The position numbers and the translations under genes were made by a program. The notes below the pieces were generated by a model that was not told the DNA's origin, ran no database searches, and saw only the letters and a list, made by a program, of their open reading frames with translations. A stretch of 64,000 bases of DNA, taken from positions 185,783-249,782 of the forward strand of contig JAPDJH010000001.1 of NCBI GenBank assembly GCA_029259175.1, in the 5' to 3' direction. How positions within the stretch are numbered: the first letter of the stretch is position 1; each line of letters starts with the position of its first letter. Origin of the DNA: Hadesarchaea archaeon (GTDB taxonomy: Archaea; Hadarchaeota; Hadarchaeia; Hadarchaeales; Hadarchaeaceae). This document shows positions 4,295 to 36,506 of this stretch, in pieces.

Positions 4295-4456
4295 ATGCCC
4301 GTGTGTAGCTCGTGCAACCGCGAGATCCCGCCAGCCGAAGTGGCCGTTCACTTCCCGTGCCCCAACTGCGGAGAGACAGAAATCTGGCGGTGTTCCAAGT
4401 GTCGCCAGCTGAGCAAGGAGTACACCTGCTCGGCGTGCGGGTTCACCGGCCCGTGA
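4295..4456 (+). CDS. Small Zn-ribbon protein (DUF1610/HVO_2753-like), absent from the ORF track
   Basis: Own translation [53 protein letters not shown]; four CxxC; usual archaeal position upstream of EF-1beta. Confidence 0.9.
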
Positions 4457-4465
4457 GGTGAGCGA

Positions 4466-4726
4466 ATGGCAAAAGTCGCTGTCACTCTCAAATTGATGCC
4501 CGAGGGTCTGGATGTTGACCTCGGTCGCCTCGAGCAGCAGGTGCGGGAGCTCGCGGAGGTGTACTCGGTGTCGAGAGAGCCCATAGCTTTTGGACTTCAG
4601 GCTCTCAAAGTCACCGTGTTGGTGGAGGACGCCGCCGGAGCCAGCGACCAAGTGGAGGAAGCCCTGACCAAGCTCCCGGGTGTGAGCAACGTCCAAGTAG
4701 TCAGCTTAACGCGTGTGCTGGAGTGA
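4466..4726 (+). CDS. ef1b: Archaeal elongation factor 1-beta
   Basis: LKLMPE...EPIAFGLQAL...VEEAL signature; GAGGTGA RBS upstream. Confidence 0.95.
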   Translation: MAKVAVTLKLMPEGLDVDLGRLEQQVRELAEVYSVSREPIAFGLQALKVTVLVEDAAGASDQVEEALTKLPGVSNVQVVSLTRVLE

Positions 4727-4728
4727 CT

Positions 4729-5751
4729 TTAGAGCTCCCAGTACTCTCTCAGCGCATGCTTCAGTCTTTCTATCGATGGTGGTGCTTTTCGTTTTTTTGG
4801 CGCGTCAAACCGCTCCCCCTGCATGGCCTTTACCATATACGTGGCACTCTCGCCTAGAGCCTGCAAGTCATATCCGCCTTCCAACACCACGAGCACCCTA
4901 TGTTTGCACAGACGCCCAGCTACGTCACAGACCACGCCCATCATCCAGCCGTACATCTCGGAAGAAAGCAGAAGAGAGGTGAGCGGATCGCGCTGGTGCG
5001 CGTCAAATCCCGCTGACACCGCTATGAACTCCGGCTTGAACTGCTCAGCGAGGGGTACAAAAACGTCCTCTATGGCCGTCCGATACTCCGCGTCCCCGCT
5101 TTCAGGCAGCATGGGGACATTGGCCGTGAACCCTTCTCCTTCTCCCACTCCTATCTCATCCACTCTTCCCGTTCCCGGGTACAGGGGCGATTGATGAAAA
5201 GAAATGTAGAACACCTCCGGGTCCTCAAAAAAGATGTCTTGCGTGCCGTTTCCGTGATGGGCATCGAAATCCAAGATGAGCGTGCGCTTGAGACCAAACT
5301 CCTGCTGGATTTTTCGGATCGCTATCGCGATATTATTGAAGTAGCAAAACCCTCCTCCAGCGCTTCTGAGAGCGTGGTGTCCGGGTGGTCTGACAAGAGC
5401 AAAGGAGTTCTGAACCTCTCCTCTCCACGCCGCTCTCGCACCCTCGATCGCTCCTCCCGCGGAGAGCAAAGCGAGCTCATAGGTCTGCTTTCGTGTGGGC
5501 GTGTCCCCATCTATCGGGATCTCCGAGGCGCTGAGCCTTCGAACCAGCTCAACATATTCAGCGCTGTGAACCGCGCGCACATCTCCTACCTTTGCCGGCT
5601 TTGGCTGTCGGACGGGAGTGGATGGAGAATCCCAGAGTCCAGCCCTTTCCAAGCCATCGATTATCGCGTTCAGGCGTTCGGCTCTCTCCGGATGCCCCCA
5701 CCCAGTATCGTGCTCCAGATACCGGGGAGTGTAAACGAGCAAAGTCTTCAT
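4729..5751 (-). CDS. Histone deacetylase family protein
   Basis: HPERAER, RPPGHHA, GFCYFNN, DFDAHHGNGTQ, SAGFDAH, LEGGY. Confidence 0.95.
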   Translation of the reverse strand: MKTLLVYTPRYLEHDTGWGHPERAERLNAIIDGLERAGLWDSPSTPVRQPKPAKVGDVRAVHSAEYVELVRRLSASEIPIDGDTPTRKQTYELALLSAGGAIEGARAAWRGEVQNSFALVRPPGHHALRSAGGGFCYFNNIAIAIRKIQQEFGLKRTLILDFDAHHGNGTQDIFFEDPEVFYISFHQSPLYPGTGRVDEIGVGEGEGFTANVPMLPESGDAEYRTAIEDVFVPLAEQFKPEFIAVSAGFDAHQRDPLTSLLLSSEMYGWMMGVVCDVAGRLCKHRVLVVLEGGYDLQALGESATYMVKAMQGERFDAPKKRKAPPSIERLKHALREYWEL

Positions 5752-6422
5752 TTCTTCTCCTCCAGCTCCGCGCGTTTGATGAGGTAATAACCGCGGGTTC
5801 CCATCCACTGCTTTTCAGCCTCCAGAATTCTTATCTTTTTCTTGAAAATCGGACCATCGACAACAAAGGTTTCGTATTCGCCGCCTTCCCCCACAGGATT
5901 TATTTGATAGCGATGACAGATCCGCAAGAATTCTTCTACAGCGGGGGCATCAAACGTCCTGCCGAGCCAGCGCTCGTCTAAACCATGGGCTGCGACTCCG
6001 GTGATCAGAATTTCGAATCCCGAATCGACTTCCGCTTTCAGCACCTCTTCGGGCTGGCGCCCCCAGAGTGGTGCTATGGACTCCAAACCCAACTCCCTGC
6101 AGACGCTGTCGATTCTCGATTTTTGATATCGCGACGCCACCGCACCGCTGACGACCCCTTCAGCATCGGCCTCCGCGAGCGCTTGCTTGAGAATCTCCAC
6201 CTCCCGTTCCGGGTCCGTGGCGCACCTCACCTGGCGAAGGGGCAGACCCACGGCTTCCGCAAAGATTCCCACGAGCTCTGCGTTGGGCCAGTGAAACATG
6301 TATGAGTCCGGATCCACGGGCAAGAGCGCAACGATTTCTGCCACTTGATGACCCTCACGAAGCGCCTCATACAAGGCGAATGTTGAGTCCTTTCCGCCAC
6401 TGCAAAGAGCCACCACGCGCAC
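5748..6422 (-). CDS. dph6: Diphthine--ammonia ligase
   Basis: SGGKDS PP-loop, DSYMFH, GEGGEYET. Confidence 0.9.
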   Translation of the reverse strand: MRVVALCSGGKDSTFALYEALREGHQVAEIVALLPVDPDSYMFHWPNAELVGIFAEAVGLPLRQVRCATDPEREVEILKQALAEADAEGVVSGAVASRYQKSRIDSVCRELGLESIAPLWGRQPEEVLKAEVDSGFEILITGVAAHGLDERWLGRTFDAPAVEEFLRICHRYQINPVGEGGEYETFVVDGPIFKKKIRILEAEKQWMGTRGYYLIKRAELEEKK

Positions 6423-6456: not shown

Positions 6457-8427
6457 TTATCGCTGAGTTTCGACCCCGTAATCAAAAACTGGCTCGCGGA
6501 GCATGAAGAGCCGGGCGTGAGCCGCTTGCTCTGCCAAGGGGAGCGGCAGAGACTCCAGCTCCCTCAGCACTTCAGCCGTCTGAAGGATCAACCGCTGCAA
6601 ATCACCTTCTTCCATTCCGCTCTCGTTCACGAGCTCGTTCCAAGCCATTCGGGTGCTGGCCCACTGGCTGGCAATTGCTGCAGCCGTGACCGCAGGGCTA
6701 CGCTTCCCGCCGCGAAAGGGTTCACCAAAAGCAGACGGGTCTATTCCGTACCTCCGCTCTAGTGCGTCAAGCTCGCGCGCCAAGTTGCGCAGAGGCCGGA
6801 TGTCCGGTCCCTTCAGAGCGCTGCGTGACGAACGCTCCGCAGCCATTGCTCCGGCCCACCCGGCGAGTTCCTCCGGATCGAGTTCGTCCATCAGTCCTCG
6901 GCGTATCGCCTCACAAATCAGCAGTGAGCGCTCATGCCTGACCAGCAAGGCCCACTCCCCCTGCTCTGTGGGCTCGTATTCCGCCGAGAGATAACCCAGC
7001 TCCTGGAGAAGTTCGGCTCTGGCCCTGAACTGGTAGATCAGTTCTCGTCTGAGACGTCTGCGCTGCTTTCTGCTCCGACGGCTCAGTTGATAGAGAGCTA
7101 GGCTCCGATCAACCACGGTTACTGCCTCCTGCAGATCGTGCTTGGCCAACAAGTTGAGCACCTGGTAATAGCGCACGCGAAACGCCGAGAGGAGCTCTTC
7201 TGGCTCGCTTTCCGCAAGTTCGCGCGCCAGACGGAGGTCCCGCGAAGAGAACGGCAACACGATTACGAATCCTACTTTGTCCTTTCCCCGGCGGCCAGCG
7301 CGCCCCGTCATCTGGTGGAATTCCAGTGCCGTGAGCGGTCGTCTCCCCTCGGGACCACCAACCCAAAGAGTCGGGAGCACTACTGTCCGGGCGGGAACAT
7401 CGAGACCAGCAGCCAAAGTGGTGGTCGCGAAAACTGCGCGCACCATTCCCCGTGCCAACATTCGCTCGACGGCGATTTTCCAAGCAGTGAGGTGTCCGGC
7501 GTGGTGGGGGGCCACTCCGGCGTCGATCAAAACTCCGGAGAAGTGGTGGGTTCGCAATATCGTGAACTCCTGAGCCAGTTCTCGGTAAACCCGCTCCCGT
7601 TCGTGCGCTCCAGCCACTCGAACCCCGCGAAAGCGTGATGCTGCCCAGTCGCAGTCCCTCCTTCGAGGCAGAAAAATAATCGCAGGCAACAAGTGGTGAC
7701 GCTCCAGTTGTTCCACCGTCCACACGGGATCGAATCCGCGGTGGAAAAGGCCGCGGGCCTTCCACGGATTTCTCATGCCAGAAAGGGGGAGAGGGCGTCC
7801 AAAACGGTCCATCCATCCGTAGCGTAGCGGAACTGGACGCTGATCGCTACTCACTTGGATCAGAGCGGGTCTGCTTCCTCGCACCTCCTCCATCCATCCG
7901 ACTATCTCCTCGGCGTTTGCTATGGTGGCCGAGAGGAGCAAAAGCTTGGTCCGCGGGGGCGCGAAGATGATTACCTCCTCCCACGTCACTCCGCGTTCCA
8001 GTTCTCCGATGTAGTGCGCCTCGTCCAGCACCACGAGAGCCGCGTCGACTTCCCCACTGTAGAGATGGTTACGCAAGATCTCGGTTGTCGCGACCAGTAG
8101 CGGGGCTCCAGCGTTCTCATGGCGCTCCCCCGTGAGGATTCCCACGCGGTCAGGACCAAACAGTCTGCGGAAATTGTCGTATTTCTGGTTGCTCAGAGCT
8201 TTGAGAGGGGTGGTGTACCAGCAGCGTGCGCCGCGTTCTAGCAGACGGGCAATCGCTTGTTCTGCAATCCACGTCTTGCCGCTGCCCGTGGGCGCAACGA
8301 CGACCGTGTCTCTGTGCAGGACCTCCTGAAGCGCTTGGGTCTGAAACGGCGATGGAATGAAGGGGCCGGGCTCCGCCTCACCGAGACCGCGAAGGAACTG
8401 TGCCGAGAGTTTTCCAAGTCTAGCCAT
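6457..8427 (-). CDS. Ski2/HelY-like SF2 DEAH helicase
   Basis: APTGSGKT, TTPLKALSNQK, DEAH, LSAT, HHAG, QMTGRAGRRG; C-terminal DSHCT-like EGDL. Confidence 0.9.
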   Translation of the reverse strand: MARLGKLSAQFLRGLGEAEPGPFIPSPFQTQALQEVLHRDTVVVAPTGSGKTWIAEQAIARLLERGARCWYTTPLKALSNQKYDNFRRLFGPDRVGILTGERHENAGAPLLVATTEILRNHLYSGEVDAALVVLDEAHYIGELERGVTWEEVIIFAPPRTKLLLLSATIANAEEIVGWMEEVRGSRPALIQVSSDQRPVPLRYGWMDRFGRPLPLSGMRNPWKARGLFHRGFDPVWTVEQLERHHLLPAIIFLPRRRDCDWAASRFRGVRVAGAHERERVYRELAQEFTILRTHHFSGVLIDAGVAPHHAGHLTAWKIAVERMLARGMVRAVFATTTLAAGLDVPARTVVLPTLWVGGPEGRRPLTALEFHQMTGRAGRRGKDKVGFVIVLPFSSRDLRLARELAESEPEELLSAFRVRYYQVLNLLAKHDLQEAVTVVDRSLALYQLSRRSRKQRRRLRRELIYQFRARAELLQELGYLSAEYEPTEQGEWALLVRHERSLLICEAIRRGLMDELDPEELAGWAGAMAAERSSRSALKGPDIRPLRNLARELDALERRYGIDPSAFGEPFRGGKRSPAVTAAAIASQWASTRMAWNELVNESGMEEGDLQRLILQTAEVLRELESLPLPLAEQAAHARLFMLREPVFDYGVETQR

Positions 8428-20739: not shown

Positions 20740-21390
20740 ATGGAGAAAAAAAAGATACCGCTCCACTTGAAAATCAGGCGTCGGTTCCACCGCGAGATCG
20801 CCTGGGCCCAAGATGTCATAGTAGAAGTGCTTTACTCCGTCTTCCCGCGGGCGGTTCTACACGGTGGAACAGCCATATGGCGGTGCTACGGCGGAAACCG
20901 GTTTTCGGAGGACCTAGACGTGTACCTCGAGAAAAGAATTGAAAAAGTAAACCAACTCTTCGACGAAATCAAGAGAAGAGGATTCGAGATTCAAAAGCGT
21001 AGGGTGAAGGAAAGCTCCCTGTTCTCCACGCTCCAGTTGGGAGGTGCTCGAGTTAGGCTCGAGGGGCTTTTTAAACGGGTGGGCGGGGTGCTACGCGAGT
21101 ACGAAACGTGTGAAGGAAATCTGCTCACGGTTTATGCGCTGAGCCCCGAGAAGTTGCTTGAGGAGAAAGTGGAGGCATACCTAGCAAGATACAAAGTCCG
21201 CGACCTATACGACGCCTTTTTCCTGCTGAGGCTCGTGGAGAAATCGAAAAACACCGTTTCAGCAGTTTCGAAGATGATCAAAGGTTTCCGGACGCCCGTG
21301 GATGAAAAGGAGCTCAAAACGGTGGTGCTTTACGGAGCCGTCCCGAGTGCTCGGGAGATGTTTGAATACATGAAGAGGTGGGTCAAGTGA
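20740..21390 (+). CDS. AbiEii-like nucleotidyltransferase toxin (type IV TA)
   Basis: LHGGTAI...RFSEDLD...EK...RDLYD motifs. Confidence 0.9.
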   Translation: MEKKKIPLHLKIRRRFHREIAWAQDVIVEVLYSVFPRAVLHGGTAIWRCYGGNRFSEDLDVYLEKRIEKVNQLFDEIKRRGFEIQKRRVKESSLFSTLQLGGARVRLEGLFKRVGGVLREYETCEGNLLTVYALSPEKLLEEKVEAYLARYKVRDLYDAFFLLRLVEKSKNTVSAVSKMIKGFRTPVDEKELKTVVLYGAVPSAREMFEYMKRWVK

Positions 21391-21977
21391 AGGGGGAAAC
21401 CATCCGGCGAGTCAGGGAGCTATTACGGGAATCCCCGGTGGTTCACATTGCGTCTGTTTCACGGCTGGTGAAGAGCACAGGATATGCCTATCTGCTGATG
21501 AACTACCTCGTAAAACGGGGGGAAGCGAGACGGATCACGCGGGGGTTTTACACCATCCATGAAGATCCGGCTTTGCTCGTATACTGTCTGAAGCCCGCGT
21601 ACTTGGGTCTCCAAGACGCGATGAGTGTGCACGGCCTCTGGGAACAGGAAACGGTTCCAGTAGTGATCACGTGTCGCAAGGTCAGGAGCGGGCTGAGAAC
21701 CGTGATGGGGCAGAACGTGGTGATCAGGCGGATTTCGAAGCGATACTTTTTCGGGTATGACTATGTGGAGCGAGGAGGGTTTCACCTTCCGGTGAGTGAT
21801 GTGGAAAAGACGCTCATCGACCTCGTGCACTTCGGGGAGATGAGGCCAGAACTGGCGGAGGAGTTCCGGGTGCGGGTAAACCGCGAGAGGCTCCGGACCT
21901 ACCTGTGCGCGTATCCAGAGCGGGTGAAGCGGGAGGTCTGGAGACTGCTGAGTGGCCGCATGGAGAGTCAGACCTAA
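21387..21977 (+). CDS. AbiEi-like antitoxin/regulator
   Basis: N-terminal wHTH RITRGFY, AYLGLQDAMSVHGLWEQ, YFFGY, SDVEKTLID; overlaps the toxin stop. Confidence 0.85.
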   Translation: MKGETIRRVRELLRESPVVHIASVSRLVKSTGYAYLLMNYLVKRGEARRITRGFYTIHEDPALLVYCLKPAYLGLQDAMSVHGLWEQETVPVVITCRKVRSGLRTVMGQNVVIRRISKRYFFGYDYVERGGFHLPVSDVEKTLIDLVHFGEMRPELAEEFRVRVNRERLRTYLCAYPERVKREVWRLLSGRMESQT

Positions 21978-22526: not shown

Positions 22527-23417
22527 CTACGCTCTAATGCTAAAGAAACCCATGCCGAACGAGGCTTTCGCGCCCGCTCCCAGCACCTCGCCCACGCGCA
22601 GCAGCCAGCGCGCGCTCTCATCCAGCTCGTCGAACTCGTAGCGGGCGATCCCCGTCCACGCCCAGAACTCACGGCGTCCCGAGCGCTTGGAATAGCCAAC
22701 GAGACGGTGGCGGTGGCGGGCCACGGGTTCGACCGTTCCGCTGCACGAGAACCCGGGCACGCTCTCACCGGTGCCGTACTCGTTGACATAGAGAACCAGA
22801 CGACGGCGGATCATGCGGAGAAGGTGCTCTGGCTTCGGTGGAAACTCGCGAGGGCAGTCGATGGGGGTGCGGAACCCGATTTCGAACTCGCTCCCGCGAA
22901 CGGGTGTGAGTTTTCTCATATCCACTGGCTCGAGGTTGCCCGGGTAGATGGTGCCGCCGTCGAATACTGGTTTGCCCGAGTGCTCACACACGGCGCGCTC
23001 TACCTCGAAGCGGTTTTTGCCGTGGTAGCGGGCCTCGCCCAAGCCGTGCGAGCCGAACTGTTGCAGAGCCAAGAGCACGTGGGGGAGATTGCGAAGGAAA
23101 TTGCCGAACATCAGCAGTTTGAGTTCAAGCTGACCTTCGCGTTCAAAGGTGAGGGGCTTGCCGAAGAAAGGAGGAACCATGATAATCGGTCTAGGTGGTG
23201 CCGAGCGCCCGCGCTTCGCGTACGGACGCTCATAGGTCTGATAGTACAGGCACTCCGCCGCGCGTTCACAGTCGGCGCACTCGTGCATCGGACGGAAGCA
23301 CACGATGCGGCGGAGGTGTTGACCCAAGCCACCCCGAAAGGCCGAACCGAGCCAGCGCGGAAGTTCGGCCTCGCCGAAGCGCAGGGTGAGCTGGAGGCTG
23401 GCGAGCTGGAGCACCAA
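22527..23417 (-). CDS. cas6: CRISPR-associated endoribonuclease Cas6
   Basis: GSAFRGGLG, CxxC..CLY, FRTP, C-terminal Gly loop GAGAKASFGMG; AGGAGG RBS before TTG/GTG at 23417/23414. Confidence 0.9.
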   Translation of the reverse strand: MVLQLASLQLTLRFGEAELPRWLGSAFRGGLGQHLRRIVCFRPMHECADCERAAECLYYQTYERPYAKRGRSAPPRPIIMVPPFFGKPLTFEREGQLELKLLMFGNFLRNLPHVLLALQQFGSHGLGEARYHGKNRFEVERAVCEHSGKPVFDGGTIYPGNLEPVDMRKLTPVRGSEFEIGFRTPIDCPREFPPKPEHLLRMIRRRLVLYVNEYGTGESVPGFSCSGTVEPVARHRHRLVGYSKRSGRREFWAWTGIARYEFDELDESARWLLRVGEVLGAGAKASFGMGFFSIRA

Positions 23418-23527
23418 GATAATCCTCCTAACAAAATTGTATTCAGAAAAATGGTTTAATCTTTCTAGCATACTTGTTTGTCGGGATAATTTTTTTAAGT
23501 TATTGGAAAGAAGAGGTTTTGATCTTA

Positions 23528-28549: not shown

Positions 28550-29908
28550 CTTTCAATCCTCACTTTTCGAGGCTTGCTATTGAAACCCCTTCAAAATTAT
28601 TGAAAAGTTGTATTACAAACGGTTCTTTCAATCCTCACTTTTCGAGGCTTGCTATTGAAACAAAAGAGGGAGGAGTGGTTTGGGGGATGAGAATGGGCTT
28701 TCAATCCTCACTTTTCGAGGCTTGCTATTGAAACATCGACCTGAAAATTGTCGTTCCAAAACAGAACTTTCAATCCTCACTTTTCGAGGCTTGCTATTGA
28801 AACCCATAAAGCGCAAGGGGGCCCTCACCCGCCAGCTGCACCTTTCAATCCTCACTTTTCGAGGCTTGCTATTGAAACGGTACTTGGGCACGGTTCCGGC
28901 GCGCGCGGCCAAGCGGGCTTTCAATCCTCACTTTTCGAGGCTTGCTATTGAAACCTGTGGAACGCCGACTACTGCCAGCTCGCCCAAGTGGCTTTCAATC
29001 CTCACTTTTCGAGGCTTGCTATTGAAACCGTAAAAACCAAACACCCCGATGTTCCGATAACGGTCTTTCAATCCTCACTTTTCGAGGCTTGCTATTGAAA
29101 CAGGACGGGCAAAGAGGTTTACGGTATTCGGGTGGTCTTTCAATCCTCACTTTTCGAGGCTTGCTATTGAAACGCCAGTTGAACTTCCCTTCATAGCAAC
29201 CCGTCCTCGCCTTTCAATCCTCACTTTTCGAGGCTTGCTATTGAAACACAACGGCCCCGAGGAAATAGCCGTACATAAGGGGGACTTTCAATCCTCACTT
29301 TTCGAGGCTTGCTATTGAAACAGTGGATAGAGCCCGAGCCGAGCACGAGCGTAGGGAGCTTTCAATCCTCACTTTTCGAGGCTTGCTATTGAAACAACTT
29401 CTCTGCAGGATCGGGGGCGGGACCGGGGATCTTTCAATCCTCACTTTTCGAGGCTTGCTATTGAAACCTGGGATACGGCCCATTCAACAAAGGCGATGTG
29501 ATCTTTCAATCCTCACTTTTCGAGGCTTGCTATTGAAACGAGCGCGAGGCCCGAGCCGAAATCCGCCGCAGGGCCGCTTTCAATCCTCACTTTTCGAGGC
29601 TTGCTATTGAAACGCGGTTGGACTTCCCCGCCCCCTGAACCCCCCACAGGCCTTTCAATCCTCACTTTTCGAGGCTTGCTATTGAAACGCGCGGCGGACC
29701 GACGCTGGGGCGGACACCGAGTACCCTTTCAATCCTCACTTTTCGAGGCTTGCTATTGAAACAGCTGTGTGCCCTGACCCTAAAAAACATGGATCTCTTT
29801 CAATCCTCACTTTTCGAGGCTTGCTATTGAAACATGAGGCGGGTGAGCTTGGCCATGCGCGGCAAGGTTTTCTTTCAATCCTCACTTTTCGAGGCTTGCT
29901 ATTGAAAC
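28550..29908 (-). CRISPR. CRISPR array, 19 identical 37-bp repeats and 18 spacers (32-39 bp)
   Basis: Repeat on + is CTTTCAATCCTCACTTTTCGAGGCTTGCTATTGAAAC. On - it is GTTTCAATAGCAAGCCTCGAAAAGTGAGGATTGAAAG, with a CCTC/GAGG stem directly before the 8-nt ATTGAAAG handle, which supports minus-strand transcription. Confidence 0.99.
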
Positions 29909-30002
29909 CCCGGCGCGCGTCCAGCAAAATCTCGGCCACTCTGGAGAAAAACCTTTCGCCCCCGTGAACTTCGATTTTTGCTCCACTGATTTATAAAGAA
30001 GT
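29909..30002 (-). promoter_or_regulatory. Probable CRISPR leader
   Basis: Non-coding gap between the cas4 stop and the first repeat, with TTTATAAA near 29990; the other array end has only 20 bp before cas8. Confidence 0.6.
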
Positions 30003-30584
30003 TCACAGCCTCCGGCAGTACTTCACCACCTCGCAGTACCCGCACCGCTCCACGCTCACCGGCCTAGGCGGCGAATCGCTCTCCACCACCCGCCGCATCC
30101 GCTCCAGATCCCGAACCAGCTGCCGCTTGTCTTCCGGGCTCACCCAGACCGAAAGCAGGCACCTTGCCGGGAGCACGTAAATCACAGCCCTCCTGATCGC
30201 CGCCCCGAACTTGCGTTCCAGCAACAGCACGTATGCTGTCATCTGCTTGCGCCAAGCCCTCGAAACATAGGTGAAATCCGAGTACTTCACCTCCACCGGC
30301 ACCAGTTCGCCGTTCTTGAGCCTCAAAACCAGATCCGCCTTACCGAACAGGCCGAGTTCCTTGTCCTCGAGCGGCACATCGTGCAAAATCGCGGCAACCT
30401 CTTCCTCGGGAAAGCCAAACACGGTGCGTCTGCGCTTGCTCCGGCCAGGTTCGCGCTCGTGTTGTCTCTGCCCTAGCTCCATCTTTTTCCGCTCAGGAGG
30501 ATAAAGGCCTAGTTTTCGAATGAAGTAGAGCTTGCGTGGGCAGTAGAAGTACTGATACACCTCCCAGACCGAGAACTCCATCAA
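30003..30584 (-). CDS. cas4: Cas4
   Basis: YCPRK, GKAD, PVEVK, QMTAY, C-terminal CGYC...C Fe-S ligands. Confidence 0.95.
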   Translation of the reverse strand: MMEFSVWEVYQYFYCPRKLYFIRKLGLYPPERKKMELGQRQHEREPGRSKRRRTVFGFPEEEVAAILHDVPLEDKELGLFGKADLVLRLKNGELVPVEVKYSDFTYVSRAWRKQMTAYVLLLERKFGAAIRRAVIYVLPARCLLSVWVSPEDKRQLVRDLERMRRVVESDSPPRPVSVERCGYCEVVKYCRRL

Positions 30585-30654
30585 AATTACTCACAACGAT
30601 TTTCAATTAATAGGGCGCCCCAACGGGTTGAAAAAACTCTAACTACTATTCCGT

Positions 30655-30680
30655 GTTAGCTAATGGTGGTTAGCTAACCA
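30655..30680. promoter_or_regulatory. Tandem palindromic operator-like site
   Basis: GTTAGCTAAT followed by the perfect 14-bp palindrome TGGTTAGCTAACCA upstream of cas4. Confidence 0.45.
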
Positions 30681-30835
30681 TGATTGTAAAAAGAAAGGAA
30701 ATGAGAGAACTCCCCAAAGCGAGAGACTAGCTTTTACGAACCTTCGTAGCAAAAACGGCAACCCAAAAGCTACGTCATGCACGCTCGCTCGCATGGCAAC
30801 TGCGAACCTTCATAACCACGCGCCCGAAAACCCCT

Positions 30836-30955
30836 TCAGAAATCTTCCTCCCGCATCTGATCCAACAACCGCTTTAACTCCTCCGGGCGCACACTTTTCG
30901 GTTTAGTCTCCACCACTACGCGCTTCTTGTCACTTTCCCGCCTCGATGCTCGCAT
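30836..30955 (-). CDS. Small charged ORF (39 aa), possible antitoxin remnant
   Basis: MRASRRESDKKRVVVETKPKSVRPEELKRLLDQMREEDF; acidic helical tail resembles archaeal antitoxins. Confidence 0.3.
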   Translation of the reverse strand: MRASRRESDKKRVVVETKPKSVRPEELKRLLDQMREEDF

Positions 30956-30992
30956 ATGAATTATATCCAGCATGAAAGATTTTAGATTTTTT

Positions 30993-32018
30993 TCACCACC
31001 GTTGCCAGAAGCCCTCGTACCGGGCCTCCTCGCCGCGCAAGAACTTGGCAAGCCTGCGAGCCTGATACAGAATCGCGTCACTCCACCTGAACTTACGGTC
31101 GCCGACCCGAACCTCGGACTCGAAGCGCTCCAAGAGCTCCTGCAGATAGAACCGCCTGACCTCGTCTCGCATCTGGCATATTCCCTGCACCATTTCAAAT
31201 CTGGCATGCGATACCATCCGCTTGCTCACAAGCTTCACCACCAAGCGGTCGACCAGATGAGGTCTGAACTCCTCCATAAGATCCAAAACCATGCTCGGCT
31301 TCCCTGGTCGATCCGCGTGCAGAAACCCACCGTATGGATCGAGCCCTGCATAGTGTACGCCACGCCAGACCTCACCAAGCAAAACCCCATACCCGTAGTT
31401 CAGCATAGCGTTTACTGGATCCCGGGCATAGCGTCCGCTCCGGCCTCCGAATCCAAGAGAGCACAAAATCCTCCCGAGAGCATCCCAGTACGCTTGAGCA
31501 GCCCGTCCTTCTACGTTCATCAGCTCTAACCTCACTTCTTCCACGCTTTTCCCCTTTATCTCAGCTATTTCACCCACCAGCGCCCGGATATGCTGAGCCG
31601 CGCCGTAGAGCACCTCGGCCGTCTTCGTGTCCGTGTCTCTGCGCTTCTTGGCAAGCGTTCCCAAAACAGCCGCTTGATTCTTCAGCTTGGCCTCAATTAC
31701 CGCCTTTGCAACCGTTGCTCCACGTTCATCCAAGTACGCGTAGTACTGCTGACGTCTAGTGTTCACCGTGCGCATTTCAGGTGGTGACAGCCTCGCTTGC
31801 ACGTTCCCTCTCAAATCGACCAACAACACGTCAACTCCGTGTTCAGCCAGCAAAGCGAGCGCGTCCGTGCTCACACTCCCCTTCCCCGATATGACCACCT
31901 GCTCCAGCTCCCGCGGTTGTAGGCGGGCCACAGTTCTGCCCTCCTCTCTAACGATAATCGTCTCGCCCTTCCGCCCGAGAAACTTCCCGAAGCCATCGAC
32001 GACCAGCCTCACTCGCAC
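30993..32018 (-). CDS. cas1: Cas1
   Basis: EGRAAQAYW, DPVNAMLNYGY, GLDPYGGFLH, DLMEEFR; GTG start after GGAGGT. Confidence 0.97.
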   Translation of the reverse strand: MRVRLVVDGFGKFLGRKGETIIVREEGRTVARLQPRELEQVVISGKGSVSTDALALLAEHGVDVLLVDLRGNVQARLSPPEMRTVNTRRQQYYAYLDERGATVAKAVIEAKLKNQAAVLGTLAKKRRDTDTKTAEVLYGAAQHIRALVGEIAEIKGKSVEEVRLELMNVEGRAAQAYWDALGRILCSLGFGGRSGRYARDPVNAMLNYGYGVLLGEVWRGVHYAGLDPYGGFLHADRPGKPSMVLDLMEEFRPHLVDRLVVKLVSKRMVSHARFEMVQGICQMRDEVRRFYLQELLERFESEVRVGDRKFRWSDAILYQARRLAKFLRGEEARYEGFWQRW

Positions 32019-32896
32019 ACCTCCAGAAACATGCAGCTGGGCGGGCATTGTTTGGCCTTCCCCGGATCTCTGCGTTGGGCCACCAGCTCCAGCTTGCGGT
32101 CGCGCTCCTCCAGCCACCAGTTCCGGAGATCGTCGTTGATGAAGAAGATATCGCGCTCCACCACCACCCTGCCGTTGCGGAAGTTGACGAGCACTGAACA
32201 CCCAACATCCACGGGCACTTCGTAAAGGCTCTCGAACACCAGTGCGTAACCCGTGGGGTACAGCCTGTAGAAGTCCCTCCGTGGTCCGCCCACCTTGACA
32301 TCGAAGACGATGTGACGCAGATAGTCGTAGCAGTCGACGCTCAGGGTTCCGCTCAGCCCCAGCAAGGTCCCGCTGAGCTTGTGCTCGACCAAAAAGGGCA
32401 GGGCGGTCGCGAGCACGTCCTGTTCGCTCGCATAGGGATGGGCGGCTCGGATCTCTTGGTAGGCGGCTCGCGCCTGGCTGAAGGAGAACTCCCACAAGGG
32501 CTCCAGACATTCCCGGAAGGCCTCGGCCCCCTCCAACTCCGGTTTTCGGCGCTCCAGCTCATGGGCCCACCACTCCTCAAAACTTATCCCGAAGTTTCCG
32601 CGCCTCACTTCGGAGAAGAGGTGCTCGAGCAGGTTGTGGGCGCTCGCACCCAGCAGGATCTCGCGCGTGCGCTTAGCGGCCCTGCGCTCCACATACATCA
32701 GGTACACGTCACGCGCCGTCTCGCAAAAGCGGCCGCAGACCGCAAACATCGAGATCCGCTCCGGATAGTACGGCCTCAGCGGCTCACGCCACCAGTTCCA
32801 CCCGCGGAGCTCCGGGCTCACGCCCACCTCGCGAGCCAGCGGCTGCACGCGGTTGATCAGGTACTTGTGCTCTTGGGCCGTCAGGAAAAAGACCAT
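32009..32896 (-). CDS. csa1: Type I-A Csa1 (Cas4-family)
   Basis: VSPELRGWNW, FCETARDVYL, LLGLS, GYALVFES, LRNWWLEERD, C-terminal Cys cluster. Confidence 0.9.
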   Translation of the reverse strand: MVFFLTAQEHKYLINRVQPLAREVGVSPELRGWNWWREPLRPYYPERISMFAVCGRFCETARDVYLMYVERRAAKRTREILLGASAHNLLEHLFSEVRRGNFGISFEEWWAHELERRKPELEGAEAFRECLEPLWEFSFSQARAAYQEIRAAHPYASEQDVLATALPFLVEHKLSGTLLGLSGTLSVDCYDYLRHIVFDVKVGGPRRDFYRLYPTGYALVFESLYEVPVDVGCSVLVNFRNGRVVVERDIFFINDDLRNWWLEERDRKLELVAQRRDPGKAKQCPPSCMFLEVCE

Positions 32897-33007
32897 CTGT
32901 TCCCCCAATTAAAGTGAACCGCTGGAGTTTTATCCAGTACTCCCAGAGAAATTGAATAGCACCTTCCCACTAATCGGGTCGCCAAACTGCGGATGGAAAA
33001 TCACAAA

Positions 33008-33043
33008 CTTTAATCCTCGCTTTTCGAAGGGCACTATTGAAAC
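33008..33043 (-). CRISPR. Solitary degenerate CRISPR repeat SR1
   Basis: + strand CTTTAATCCTCGCTTTTCGAAGGGCACTATTGAAAC aligns end-to-end with the array repeat, same orientation. Confidence 0.85.
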
Positions 33044-33150
33044 CTGAAACTTGGTCGGCGGGATAAACCGGTACTTTGCTGAGCGGAAGTGGATCTGATG
33101 CAGCCATGTGTATTCCCAAGGCTGGACCCCTCTGAAATGATTAAACCCTT

Positions 33151-33169
33151 ATATGCATATGTATGCATA
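33151..33169. promoter_or_regulatory. Tandem TATGCATA palindromes, likely TA autoregulatory operator overlapping the promoter
   Basis: ATATGCATAT-G-TATGCATA immediately after CCCTT(ATAT), ending 10 bp before the antitoxin ATG. Confidence 0.6.
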
Positions 33170-33179
33170 GTTAATACCG

Positions 33180-33425
33180 ATGGGAAGTGTGGTCATACGC
33201 ATAAGCCCGGAGACGCGTGAACTCCTCAAGCAGCGAGCTGCCAAGGACCAGACCTACGACCAGATTATCCAAGAGATGGTAGAGGTCTACGACGCACTGA
33301 TGGCAGAGTTCGAACGCATGCTTCGTGATACCCCGGAGCGGGAATGGATCAGCCATCGGCAACTTCTCAAGGACTTGGGGCTGACCGAGGAAGAAATCGA
33401 GCGCGAACGGGAGAAGCTTGATTAG
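33180..33425 (+). CDS. Ribbon-helix-helix-type antitoxin
   Basis: VIRISPETRELLK...TYDQII N-terminus; acidic C-terminus; overlaps the toxin. Confidence 0.75.
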   Translation: MGSVVIRISPETRELLKQRAAKDQTYDQIIQEMVEVYDALMAEFERMLRDTPEREWISHRQLLKDLGLTEEEIEREREKLD

Positions 33426-33693
33426 ATATCATCCCTTTTTCGAGCGGCAGCTGGGGAAGCTGCCCCGTGGCCTTCAGCGGCGCATCTTGGCGCGAATTGT
33501 GGAATATCATGAGACCGGGCGGGGAGACGTTCGAAAGATCCTCGGTGATCTCGAGGCGCTGAGGGTTGGAAGTTATCGGATCTATTTGGGTTGGGTGGGG
33601 AACGAGCTCAGGGTGGTCTCCGTCTTCCACCGTAGGGTCGTATACTCCAAACACCTGCTCAAGGCTGCCCTCCGGAGGCTCAGGCGGGAGTAA
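33418..33693 (+). CDS. RelE/ParE-family toxin
   Basis: FERQLGKLP...GDVRKILG...LRVGSYRI...VFHRRVVY; basic, 91 aa. Confidence 0.85.
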   Translation: MIRYHPFFERQLGKLPRGLQRRILARIVEYHETGRGDVRKILGDLEALRVGSYRIYLGWVGNELRVVSVFHRRVVYSKHLLKAALRRLRRE

Positions 33694-33792
33694 CTCTCGA
33701 GGAGATCGGTCTTCGTGCAGAAAAGCGTGCGAAGGAGTGCTAGCAATCACCACCGTCGGGGCTGTGATCGGGAGGACAGATCGGTGCTTCAC

Positions 33793-33825
33793 CTTTCAAT
33801 CCTTTTTGAGGCCTGCTGTTGAAAC
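33793..33825 (-). CRISPR. Solitary degenerate CRISPR repeat SR2
   Basis: + strand CTTTCAATCCTTTTTGAGGCCTGCTGTTGAAAC; the array repeat with an internal 4-nt shortening, same orientation. Confidence 0.85.
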
Positions 33826-33859
33826 GGGGAGAGGGATCCGATAGACACACGTTGCGTGC

Positions 33860-34049
33860 CGTCCGCCGAGTAGCCAAACGCCTCCGCCCCGAGCCGCTGG
33901 AAGACCACCTTCCCGACTTTCTCCGCGGCCTGTTGCGACAGAAAGCAAACCCACTCGTGAAACCCGCCACGGAGTTCGGACTCGGCGTTCTCCGGATTTC
34001 GCTCGGCCTGCCGCATCCAGTCCGCGCTGCGCTCTGCCGCCGCCCACAT
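33860..34049 (-). pseudogene. Truncated HEPN-domain protein (N-terminal half)
   Basis: ERSADWMRQAERN...GFHEWVCFLSQQAAEK...LGAEAFGYS is a HEPN N-terminus; the frame then runs into SR2 and stops at 33789. Confidence 0.7.
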
Positions 34050-34092
34050 CCCTTGGCGTCCCCTGTGCTCAAGGCTAGGCGCCACCGAGCCC

Positions 34093-34377
34093 TTAAACCA
34101 CCCGCACGTCCTCTGCACGAGCCGGTTCGAGCCGCTCCCGAGCGACCGCGCACCACAGGCGCACACAACGTTCGCACAGGGGTACCACGTAAATCCGGTC
34201 GCGCTCGCTCCCGATGAACTCGGGCAGCTCCTTCAACAGCGCGTGGCGGTCGTGGGGGTTGAGCTCACCGCAGAACGCGCTCAGCTGTACCCGCTGCAAG
34301 CCGTAGTCAAAAAGCCGGTTCGCCAAACGCTCGCGCATCCGGTCAGAGCTTATGTCGTAGATCACCAGCGTCTGCAT
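34093..34377 (-). CDS. cas2: Cas2
   Basis: LVIYDISSDRMR...YGLQRVQLSAFCG...VPLCERC. Confidence 0.95.
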   Translation of the reverse strand: MQTLVIYDISSDRMRERLANRLFDYGLQRVQLSAFCGELNPHDRHALLKELPEFIGSERDRIYVVPLCERCVRLWCAVARERLEPARAEDVRVV

Positions 34378-36029: not shown

Positions 36030-36506
36030 TTATGGCTGATAATAGCAAACGCGAAGCTCAGGGTCGTAAACCTTGGGCTCCGGAAGCCTGCGGGCTCGCT
36101 CGGGCGTGATCCCGTCCGCGCGTCGCCACCCGTGCATGAGGGCGTTTGCGCGCAATCCGAGGTCAACCTTGCGCAGCAAGCAATTGGTGTCAGCCTGAAC
36201 CTCCTGGATCTTCTTCAGGGTGCACGCGGTGTCCCTTTGCACGCGTTTGATCTCCTCCTGGGTCCGGCTGATCTTGACCAGGCAGCGCTCGAGCTTCCGG
36301 AGGATGCGCTGGGTCTGCCGGCTGTAAGTCTCGATTATCTGCCGGGTCTGCCGGTTGGAGTTCCGGATGATGTGCCGGGTCTGCCGGTTCGAGGTCTCAA
36401 TCGTAGCTTGAATTATTCGCTGCGTCTGATAATTGCTCAGCACCACGGTTACGATTATCGGCAGGGTTATCGTCAGCACGGCCGTGAGCGCCTCCATCAC
36501 ACCCAT
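36030..36506 (-). CDS. Membrane-anchored coiled-coil protein with 11-residue repeats
   Basis: N-terminal TM, then [33 protein letters not shown]. Confidence 0.65.
36303..36401. repeat. Three imperfect 33-bp tandem repeats (coding)
   Basis: GGGTCTGCCGG core recurs at 33-bp spacing. Confidence 0.75.

Follow-up and report, generated by a model that had tools for sequence, protein, structure and literature searches.

A toxin-antitoxin cassette bracketed by two degenerate CRISPR repeats in the adaptation operon of a Hadesarchaea archaeon

The DNA described here is a 64,000-nt stretch from a Hadesarchaea archaeon (NCBI GenBank assembly GCA_029259175.1, contig JAPDJH010000001.1, positions 185,783 to 249,782 of the forward strand), referred to throughout as the window. 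It contains a CRISPR array with cas genes, and our subject is a pair of stray copies of the array repeat, A and B, which lie outside the array and bracket a toxin-antitoxin (TA) gene pair. The window lies on contig C1 of a 1.31 Mb genome, which is about 91% complete and assembled in 23 contigs (1,306,024 bp). Ribosomal protein S28e is present in this DNA, and as that family gave matches in the four archaeal controls only, it marks the organism as an archaeon. A and B sit between csa1 and cas2. The TA genes are on the plus strand, antisense to cas2>csa1>cas1>cas4, and form an intact pair of open reading frames (ORFs), as an earlier note on this DNA had stated. The features of the interval, in window coordinates, are as follows.

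33008..33043, minus strand: ectopic repeat A; 30/37 columns identical to the array repeat, 5-bp hairpin kept, one tag base lost
33055..33092, plus strand: LeuA-family (isopropylmalate/citramalate synthase) gene relic, 3' end, ..GINRYFAERK; nhmmer E 3.6e-6 (64-kb window)
33149..33179, plus strand: putative TA promoter/operator; TATA-like box and ATGCAT..ATGCAT palindrome
33180..33425, plus strand: antitoxin, 81 aa, DUF7557 (PF24434 1.2e-5, 25.1 bits against a cut-off of 25)
33418..33693, plus strand: RelE-fold toxin, 91 aa (profile, model and Foldseek); overlaps the antitoxin ORF by 8 nt
33681..33787, plus strand: right flank; weak colinearity with those LeuA codons that lie upstream of the left relic (nhmmer E 3.7, by itself not significant)
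33793..33825, minus strand: ectopic repeat B; 31/37 columns identical, AUUGAAAG tag intact, hairpin down to 3 bp
34049..~33864, minus strand: 5' fragment of a HEPN toxin gene, a pseudogene; PF05168 profile positions 3-49 of 117

Repeats were located by fitting alignment of the array repeat to the whole assembly, on both strands (23 contigs, 2.6 Mb of strand in total). Nineteen matches have a score of 37, followed by A with 22 and B with 21, and the background reaches 14 (one match), 13 (one) and 12 (six). The two diverged copies which the earlier note had picked out therefore stand well clear of chance matches. Both are in the orientation of the array, at a distance of 3.1 and 3.9 kb from it, again as the note had it, and both are sense for a minus-strand read-through transcript of the cas2>csa1 operon. 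When seven repeat variants were compared (the genome's own and six from four relatives), A and B each scored best on the repeat of their own genome. The score of A against B is 11, so that each copy is closer to the array repeat than to the other.

All 19 array repeats are identical, whereas seven columns are changed in A and six in B. In A there are four changes in the 5' linker and two in the stem, both of which keep the pairing, and one base is gone from the tag, which reads AUU-AAAG. The changes in B are two substitutions and the deletion of four stem-loop bases. On RNA folding, B was no better than its shuffles (133/200 fold as well), and A was unremarkable (57/200). The interval between the copies is 749 bp, which is outside the canonical spacer length; the array spacers are 32-39 nt long. 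No leader-like sequence was found beside A or B, the scores of their flanks against the leader and the array distal flank being within those of shuffles, and no eroded partner repeat in register was present 20-60 nt from either copy. Four candidate pseudo-spacer seeds (11 nt, position 6 free) each gave 5-10 scattered genomic matches, which is chance level, and no match fell in the promoters of TA, cas2, csa1, cas6 or the leader when these were searched without a known protospacer-adjacent motif (PAM).

The toxin ORF itself has no Pfam match, and five of its eight homologues match Pfam ParE_toxin. A profile built from the eight homologues matches RelE chains in the PDB (2khe, 1.9e-5; 3bpq, 2.9e-5; 1wmi, 0.0047). 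The structural model of the toxin has a mean predicted local distance difference test score (pLDDT) of 93.8, and its top Foldseek matches are RelE structures 3bpq and 2khe, with 4fxe and 1wmi also among them. The eight-sequence alignment contains invariant Arg and Tyr columns, which may correspond to the catalytic residues of RelE. The RelE-like nature of the toxin, already proposed from the letters, is thus well borne out. The DUF7557 profile matches eight of the nine members of the antitoxin family, with a best E of 7e-11. In the antitoxin model (pLDDT 81.8) two helices come after an N-terminal stretch without structure, and the folds that match it best are ParD and PrpA ribbon-helix-helix (RHH) antitoxins, with E values of 3-8, which are not significant. 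The gene order and overlap expected of an antitoxin are present, and the RHH fold which the earlier note had assigned to it is only suggested; from the model, the protein is probably a ParD-like RHH antitoxin.

DNA similarity to the two nearest cassettes (L018 and L043; the two nearest are at 60% and 65% aa) starts at the promoter, at 33149, and the promoter/operator motif was common to all three related cassettes when compared by eye, in agreement with the earlier annotation. The TA pair is thus intact and has a promoter of its own, the similarity to the nearest cassettes covering the TATA-like box and the palindrome. RelE homologues are present in 20 of the 64 other genomes of the order. A search for close RelE relatives in wider genome contigs gave 356 pattern matches, none of which was confirmed, and metagenome contigs gave two loci. 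Repeat-like sequence was found at none of the 19 related TA loci fetched from the order (score of at least 12) and at neither of the two metagenome loci (score of at least 11). From these comparisons the cassette would be a mobile and autonomous unit. As a separate observation, the closest genomic TA homologue (L018, G006:C56, ~1150-1479) adjoins an ORF that by eye is TnpB/IS605-OrfB-like.

The interval holds more than the TA genes. The repeats had been described as bracketing exactly one cassette, and while the cassette does lie inside them, the exactness does not hold, as the left side has about 105 nt of extra DNA, LeuA relic included, and the right side about 99 nt. This relic is 38 nt long and begins 11 nt past A. 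Six places in the genomes of other genera match it with 90-94% identity over 30-33 nt, and the genome's own leuA-like gene (C1:88969-90516) matches it at 27/33 positions. Being closer to the genes of other genera than to the resident gene, it is of foreign origin, and with such a relic just inside A, which the earlier note had missed, the 'giant spacer' of that note is captured foreign chromosomal DNA rather than one clean cassette. Over about 25 nt the right flank repeats the left copy directly but imperfectly (18/25). Its score was reached by 0/1000 shuffles against the genome's own leuA and by 243/1000 against the leuA of G006, and that of the left-versus-right repeat by 23/1000. A duplication of leuA sequence in the right flank is suggestive only.

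B does not lie next to cas2; a truncated HEPN gene, also missed in the earlier note, intervenes. It starts 43 nt after cas2, and its similarity to HEPN genes ends 38 nt before B. Homologues align only to query residues 6-63 (about 60 residues). In a full-length relative (L039) the protein runs to about 125 aa and is followed by a nucleotidyltransferase; here the C-terminal half of HEPN is gone and no MNT follows the fragment, so that the features of a HEPN-MNT TA system are lacking. Altogether the species-specific insertion between cas2 and csa1 amounts to about 1.17 kb.

Close homologues of csa1 (66-78%) occur in six other genomes. The cas2-csa1 junction of all four relatives that have one is a gap of 48-90 bp, with no repeat-like sequence (score of at least 14) and no TA or HEPN match. 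The csa1 of G002 was left out of this count, as it follows an HD-nuclease-like ORF (named by eye) and not cas2. The earlier note had suggested looking in relatives for a repeat-TA-repeat arrangement or for an empty allele with a single repeat, and neither is present at these four junctions; nor was a full second array seen at this site, of which A and B could be the eroded remains. Absent from the junctions of the four relatives and from all 21 related TA loci, the layout is species-specific. Judged by their sequences, A and B are degenerate ectopic repeats, and they lack the conserved position by which function would be recognised.

Isolated repeats of this family also occur elsewhere in the order. 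Seven loci from other genomes, found with the array as DNA query, were fetched; six have one repeat and one has a pair 70 nt apart, and in two of the seven the repeat is beside MNT or MNT-HepT TA genes. At L053 (G037:C10, ~4429-6339), in another family, there is a solitary repeat 36/37 identical to that of the present array. It lies upstream of an MNT-HepT pair and a Cas6 fragment of 119 aa, at about 600 nt, and the locus seems to be what is left of a sister CRISPR-cas locus since lost. Stray repeats outside arrays were seen in six more genomes (L054 in G056, L056 in G007, L055 in G029, and L057, L058 and L059). Among these are one repeat 165 nt from an MNT gene, one two-repeat mini-array with the 70-nt spacing, and one repeat between ADH and JAB-MptE genes, partly syntenic with the window. 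The synteny at the stray repeat of G007 is partial: MptE matches nearby, ADH/DeoC is about 31 kb off and JAB is on another contig.

Contigs from four runs, DNA and RNA, were compared with the window; X5 and X8 come from two other studies. Contigs of X5, an independent DNA run, cover 31812-33731 with two differences (csa1, A and TA) and 33722-34161 with none (TA, B, the HEPN fragment and cas2). X8, from a third study, contributes pieces of a slightly different strain, including one across B. With the same arrangement in two independent metagenome studies, the layout is not an artefact of assembly. No joints or alternative alleles were reported among the four runs. The X8 strain differs from the window at 7/151 nt in the HEPN fragment, 1/302 in the TA genes, 2/550 in cas genes and 3/129 in the piece with B. 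Relative to the HEPN fragment, the TA genes (p 0.002) and the cas genes (p 0.0005) are conserved; the piece with B is not distinguishable from the HEPN fragment (p 0.35). In X5, and in X7, an RNA run of the same sample, the sequence beyond the cas4 stop (30003) is unlike the leader of the window, and the 3' part of cas4 in X5 (30158-30268) has 12 differences in about 110 nt. The X5 strain seems to have a different leader/array junction and yet to keep A, TA and B.

The remainder of the CRISPR-cas locus contains the following features on the minus strand; the plus strand of the locus carries cas7, cas5, a fused HD-helicase cas3 and cas8b.

22527..23471, minus strand: cas6 candidate; PF10040 CRISPR_Cas6, 34.8 bits, over the cut-off
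28550..29908, minus strand: CRISPR array; 37-nt repeat in 19 identical copies, with 18 spacers 32-39 nt long
29909..30002, minus strand: leader, with a TATA box between inverted-repeat arms; aligns in 5/5 loci
30003..30584, minus strand: cas4 (PF01930 6.5e-21, TIGR00372 8.3e-34)
30993..32006, minus strand: cas1 (PF01867 6.3e-81); relatives align to residues 1-337
32009..32896, minus strand: csa1 (PF06023 1.1e-76, TIGR01896); start ATG at 32896 set by the alignment of relatives
34093..34377, minus strand: cas2 (PF09827 4e-17, TIGR01573)

The PF10040 match is at G000:C1:208330-208632, which is 22548-22850 in the window and within the cas6 candidate ORF; TIGR01877 matches the candidate weakly and the PF01881 profile gives no match. 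On the transcribed minus strand the array repeat reads GUUUCAAU...GGAUUGAAAG, and its RNA has a 5-bp hairpin directly 5' of an 8-nt tag. The ends of the repeat look similar when read either way, and the direction of the array was therefore checked separately. The leader is the 94-nt stretch between the cas4 stop and the first repeat, and was aligned in the window and in L013, L014, L015 and L016. The cas4-distal end of the array is only 20 nt from the cas8b stop, and in L016 the terminal repeats at that end are degenerate. The conserved leader and these degenerate distal repeats indicate that the array is read on the minus strand, like cas2>csa1>cas1>cas4. The core of the leader is strongly conserved across four genera, with the TATA box TTTATAAA between the arms GTGAACTTC and GAAGTTCAC of an inverted repeat, which may be the binding site of a regulator. 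In L015 (G025:C2, ~7490-7527) just one repeat, and no array, comes after the conserved leader, so that the array there has either collapsed or never grown.

The array used as DNA query against 65 genomes matched repeats only, with no spacer match at E 0.001. Scans of the window for tRNAs and, at gathering thresholds, for Rfam families gave no match. Other cargo is present in the locus. Upstream of cas6, at 20740-21977 on the plus strand, an AbiEii-like nucleotidyltransferase toxin (PF08843, 5.6e-16) and a weakly AbiEi-like ORF form a pair, which is another TA module in the CRISPR-cas locus. Between cas1 and cas4 there is an insert of about 400 bp (30585-30992), where the two genes abut in all five relatives with that junction; in it are a 39-aa ORF on the minus strand (30836-30955) and a non-coding part of about 250 nt in which the motif TTAGCTAAC recurs, and a 39-nt piece of the insert (30836-30874) occurs on another contig in run X5. 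A 33-nt tandem repeat in three copies with 74% matches is found at 36295-36393.

We read A and B as decaying ectopic repeats in a patchwork cargo insertion around an autonomous TA pair, whose link to CRISPR would be one of position only, and put the probability of this reading at about 0.55. The arrangement looks like an accident of gene shuffling in one species and not a new CRISPR-controlled addiction device. The insertion consists, in order, of the truncated HEPN gene, B, about 750 bp of foreign archaeal DNA with the TA genes and the LeuA end, A, and about 80 nt more. The antitoxin would repress the conserved palindromic operator and neutralise a RelE-type mRNA interferase, and the TA pair would be tied to CRISPR in that it makes loss of the adaptation region costly. 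A and B would be footprints of the entry of DNA at a cargo hotspot in the adaptation operon, now drifting. One route of entry would be recombination at an older stray repeat or mini-array. A leuA-derived spacer in a small relic array could have undergone one crossover with a matching incoming circle, which would account for the duplicated leuA segment and for an original A-B spacing of about 36 nt. Alternatively, unrelated DNA may have been inserted next to an old leuA-derived spacer in a small relic array, or an aberrant integrase event may have occurred. All three routes fit the data, with no choice among them. A relic mini-array or an oversized insertion, both mentioned in the earlier note, is a more likely story than functional coupling, and either has to account for the foreign leuA fragment and the truncated HEPN gene as well.

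Several points weigh against this reading. The arrangement persists in samples from three studies. The right-flank leuA similarity on which the crossover route depends is weak, and a donor context with leuA and this TA pair together was not found: LeuA is near none of the 21 TA loci, and the TA genes are at none of six leuA loci. Both copies keep both ends of the repeat, the stem changes in A preserve pairing and the tag of B is perfect. These are the parts that a B-spacer-A transcript would need, so some constraint on A and B is possible. That two stray repeats should point the same way and closely enclose one insert is also more order than random debris predicts.

The main idea of the earlier note was a functional coupling. 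Cas6 would cut the read-through RNA at B and A and so separate the cas2 mRNA from the csa1-cas1-cas4 mRNA, and the freed RNA of about 785 nt, with a 5' tag of the CRISPR RNA (crRNA) type and antisense to the TA genes, would lower expression of RelE and antitoxin and make the cell dependent on Cas6 or on expression of the cas operon. The orientation of the repeats fits, cas6 is present, A has kept a 5-bp hairpin through pair-preserving changes and B has the exact tag. A contig from an RNA library also spans B (33495-33831), which shows presence in the library and nothing more; the RNA runs X7 and X9 consist of unstranded contigs without ends, carry-over of DNA is possible, and no RNA contig covers 32828-33494, which says nothing for or against transcription or cleavage. 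The hairpin of B, however, is down to three pairs and folds no better than shuffles, the fold of A is unremarkable, and the region of B is not detectably constrained between strains. The 111 nt downstream of A may, by eye, contain a separate promoter for csa1. Neither the four relatives nor any other TA locus shows the arrangement, and the coupling of the TA pair to CRISPR which the earlier note proposed finds no support in these comparisons. We regard this model as unlikely, and place it no lower because the retained parts of the repeats are compatible with it. Its sharper form, in which the TA pair would be a Cas6-dependent addiction module, the tagged antisense RNA holding RelE down until loss of cas6 or silencing of the operon frees the toxin, we regard as rather improbable.

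Three further explanations were considered. Cas1-Cas2, with Csa1 and Cas4, might have integrated a foreign fragment of about 750 bp at a stray repeat and duplicated the repeat, as happens when an ordinary spacer is acquired, the copies then diverging. Off-site integration by Cas1-Cas2 has reportedly been observed (Nivala et al., 2018), direct repeats of the system's own kind do flank foreign DNA, and the insert is inside the adaptation operon itself. A and B, though, score 11 against each other as compared with 22 and 21 against the array repeat, and being less alike than each is to the array they would require a long independent decay from one copy. No leader-like sequence is nearby, the junction in relatives has no target repeat and the truncated HEPN gene is left unexplained. 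The spacer integrase measures the length of the DNA that it inserts, and with array spacers of 32-39 nt this speaks against 750 bp; we find such an event highly doubtful. Each stray repeat might instead head a crRNA-like RNA of its own that steers Cascade to the TA or a cas promoter. A lies within the divergent csa1/TA intergenic region, and elements of this sort, widespread in type I loci, have been predicted to control protein TA cargo (PMC10120712). Neither copy, however, has a second repeat at 20-60 nt, the seed matches are scattered at chance level with none in local promoters (the PAM not being known), and the copies are not conserved in relatives. For a type III version, with a guide derived from B, no effector was found, as the genome, 91% complete, gave no match to the Cas10 families TIGR02577 and TIGR02578. 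Two independent guides are very improbable. An artefact in which array reads were wrongly fused to a TA contig might be feared in an assembly of 23 contigs and about 91% completeness, since CRISPR repeats are prone to misassembly. Against this, the X5 contigs cover both sides with two and no differences, X8 has pieces across B, and A and B are degenerate and not identical to the array; we give this explanation practically no credence.

Stray repeats and TA cargo are both already known as common in type I loci. Shmakov et al. (2023, PMC10120712) report repeat-like sequences outside arrays in 43% of I-A and 51% of I-B loci, with mini-array spacers of 20-60 bp. Many single repeats are judged there to be spurious or remnants, and among the cargo there is an enrichment of TA genes, for which regulation by mini-arrays is predicted. 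Regulatory crRNA-like RNAs in type I loci are described in PMC8501985, PMC9458426 and 10.1101/2023.03.10.532045. A and B resemble the standalone repeat units of PMC10120712 in being degenerate copies of the array repeat outside the array and between type I cas genes, in a region of cargo shuffling rich in TA genes, where such units are often judged to be non-functional remnants or substrates of recombination. They differ from them in that two units in the same orientation, 749 bp apart, bracket a protein TA pair and foreign DNA, and in that conservation in related loci, which that source takes as its criterion for function, is absent.

With the CreA, CreR and crRNA-like RNA (crlRNA) mini-arrays the interval shares two divergent, degenerate repeats in a type I cas locus and an association with TA genes, and the upstream repeat keeps the tag and the downstream one the 5' part and the hairpin. 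Mini-arrays, however, have a spacer of 20-60 bp that partly matches a promoter, whereas here there are 749 bp of coding DNA with no promoter match found. In CreTA the toxin CreT is an RNA, repressed by Cascade with a crRNA-like antitoxin; here the toxin is a 91-aa RelE protein with a protein antitoxin. The cassette resembles the type II RelBE/ParDE modules carried as cargo in defence islands in having the antitoxin first, small overlapping ORFs, a RelE fold, a probable RHH N-terminus, a palindromic upstream operator and unrelated genomic contexts. It is distinct from these in that its antitoxin belongs to the uncharacterised DUF7557 family and that CRISPR repeats flank it, antisense in a cas operon. 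CRISPR arrays can also be interrupted by insertion sequence (IS) elements, and recombination between spacer and protospacer is said to have been described by Varble et al. in 2019; in both, long non-spacer DNA comes to lie between repeats, and a crossover is a possible route here. Unlike an interrupted array, the present repeats are outside the array, there is no transposase or inverted end, and the duplicated leuA segment, as evidence for a crossover, is weak at one of its two sides. The literature searched gave no report of a protein TA pair bracketed by two CRISPR repeats; the supplementary lists of PMC10120712 could hold long-spaced pairs.

If Cas6 still cuts the two repeats, there would be a new tie between a protein toxin and the health of the CRISPR system, and if the addiction module were true, CreTA would have a counterpart with a protein toxin, based on processing of RNA and not on binding of Cascade. 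The evidence favours the footprint reading over one in which Cas6 cuts. If the repeats are only footprints, the interval would be a natural example of the pick-up of cargo by CRISPR-cas loci, and would bear on the enrichment of TA genes in such loci and on stray repeats as sites of recombination or integration.

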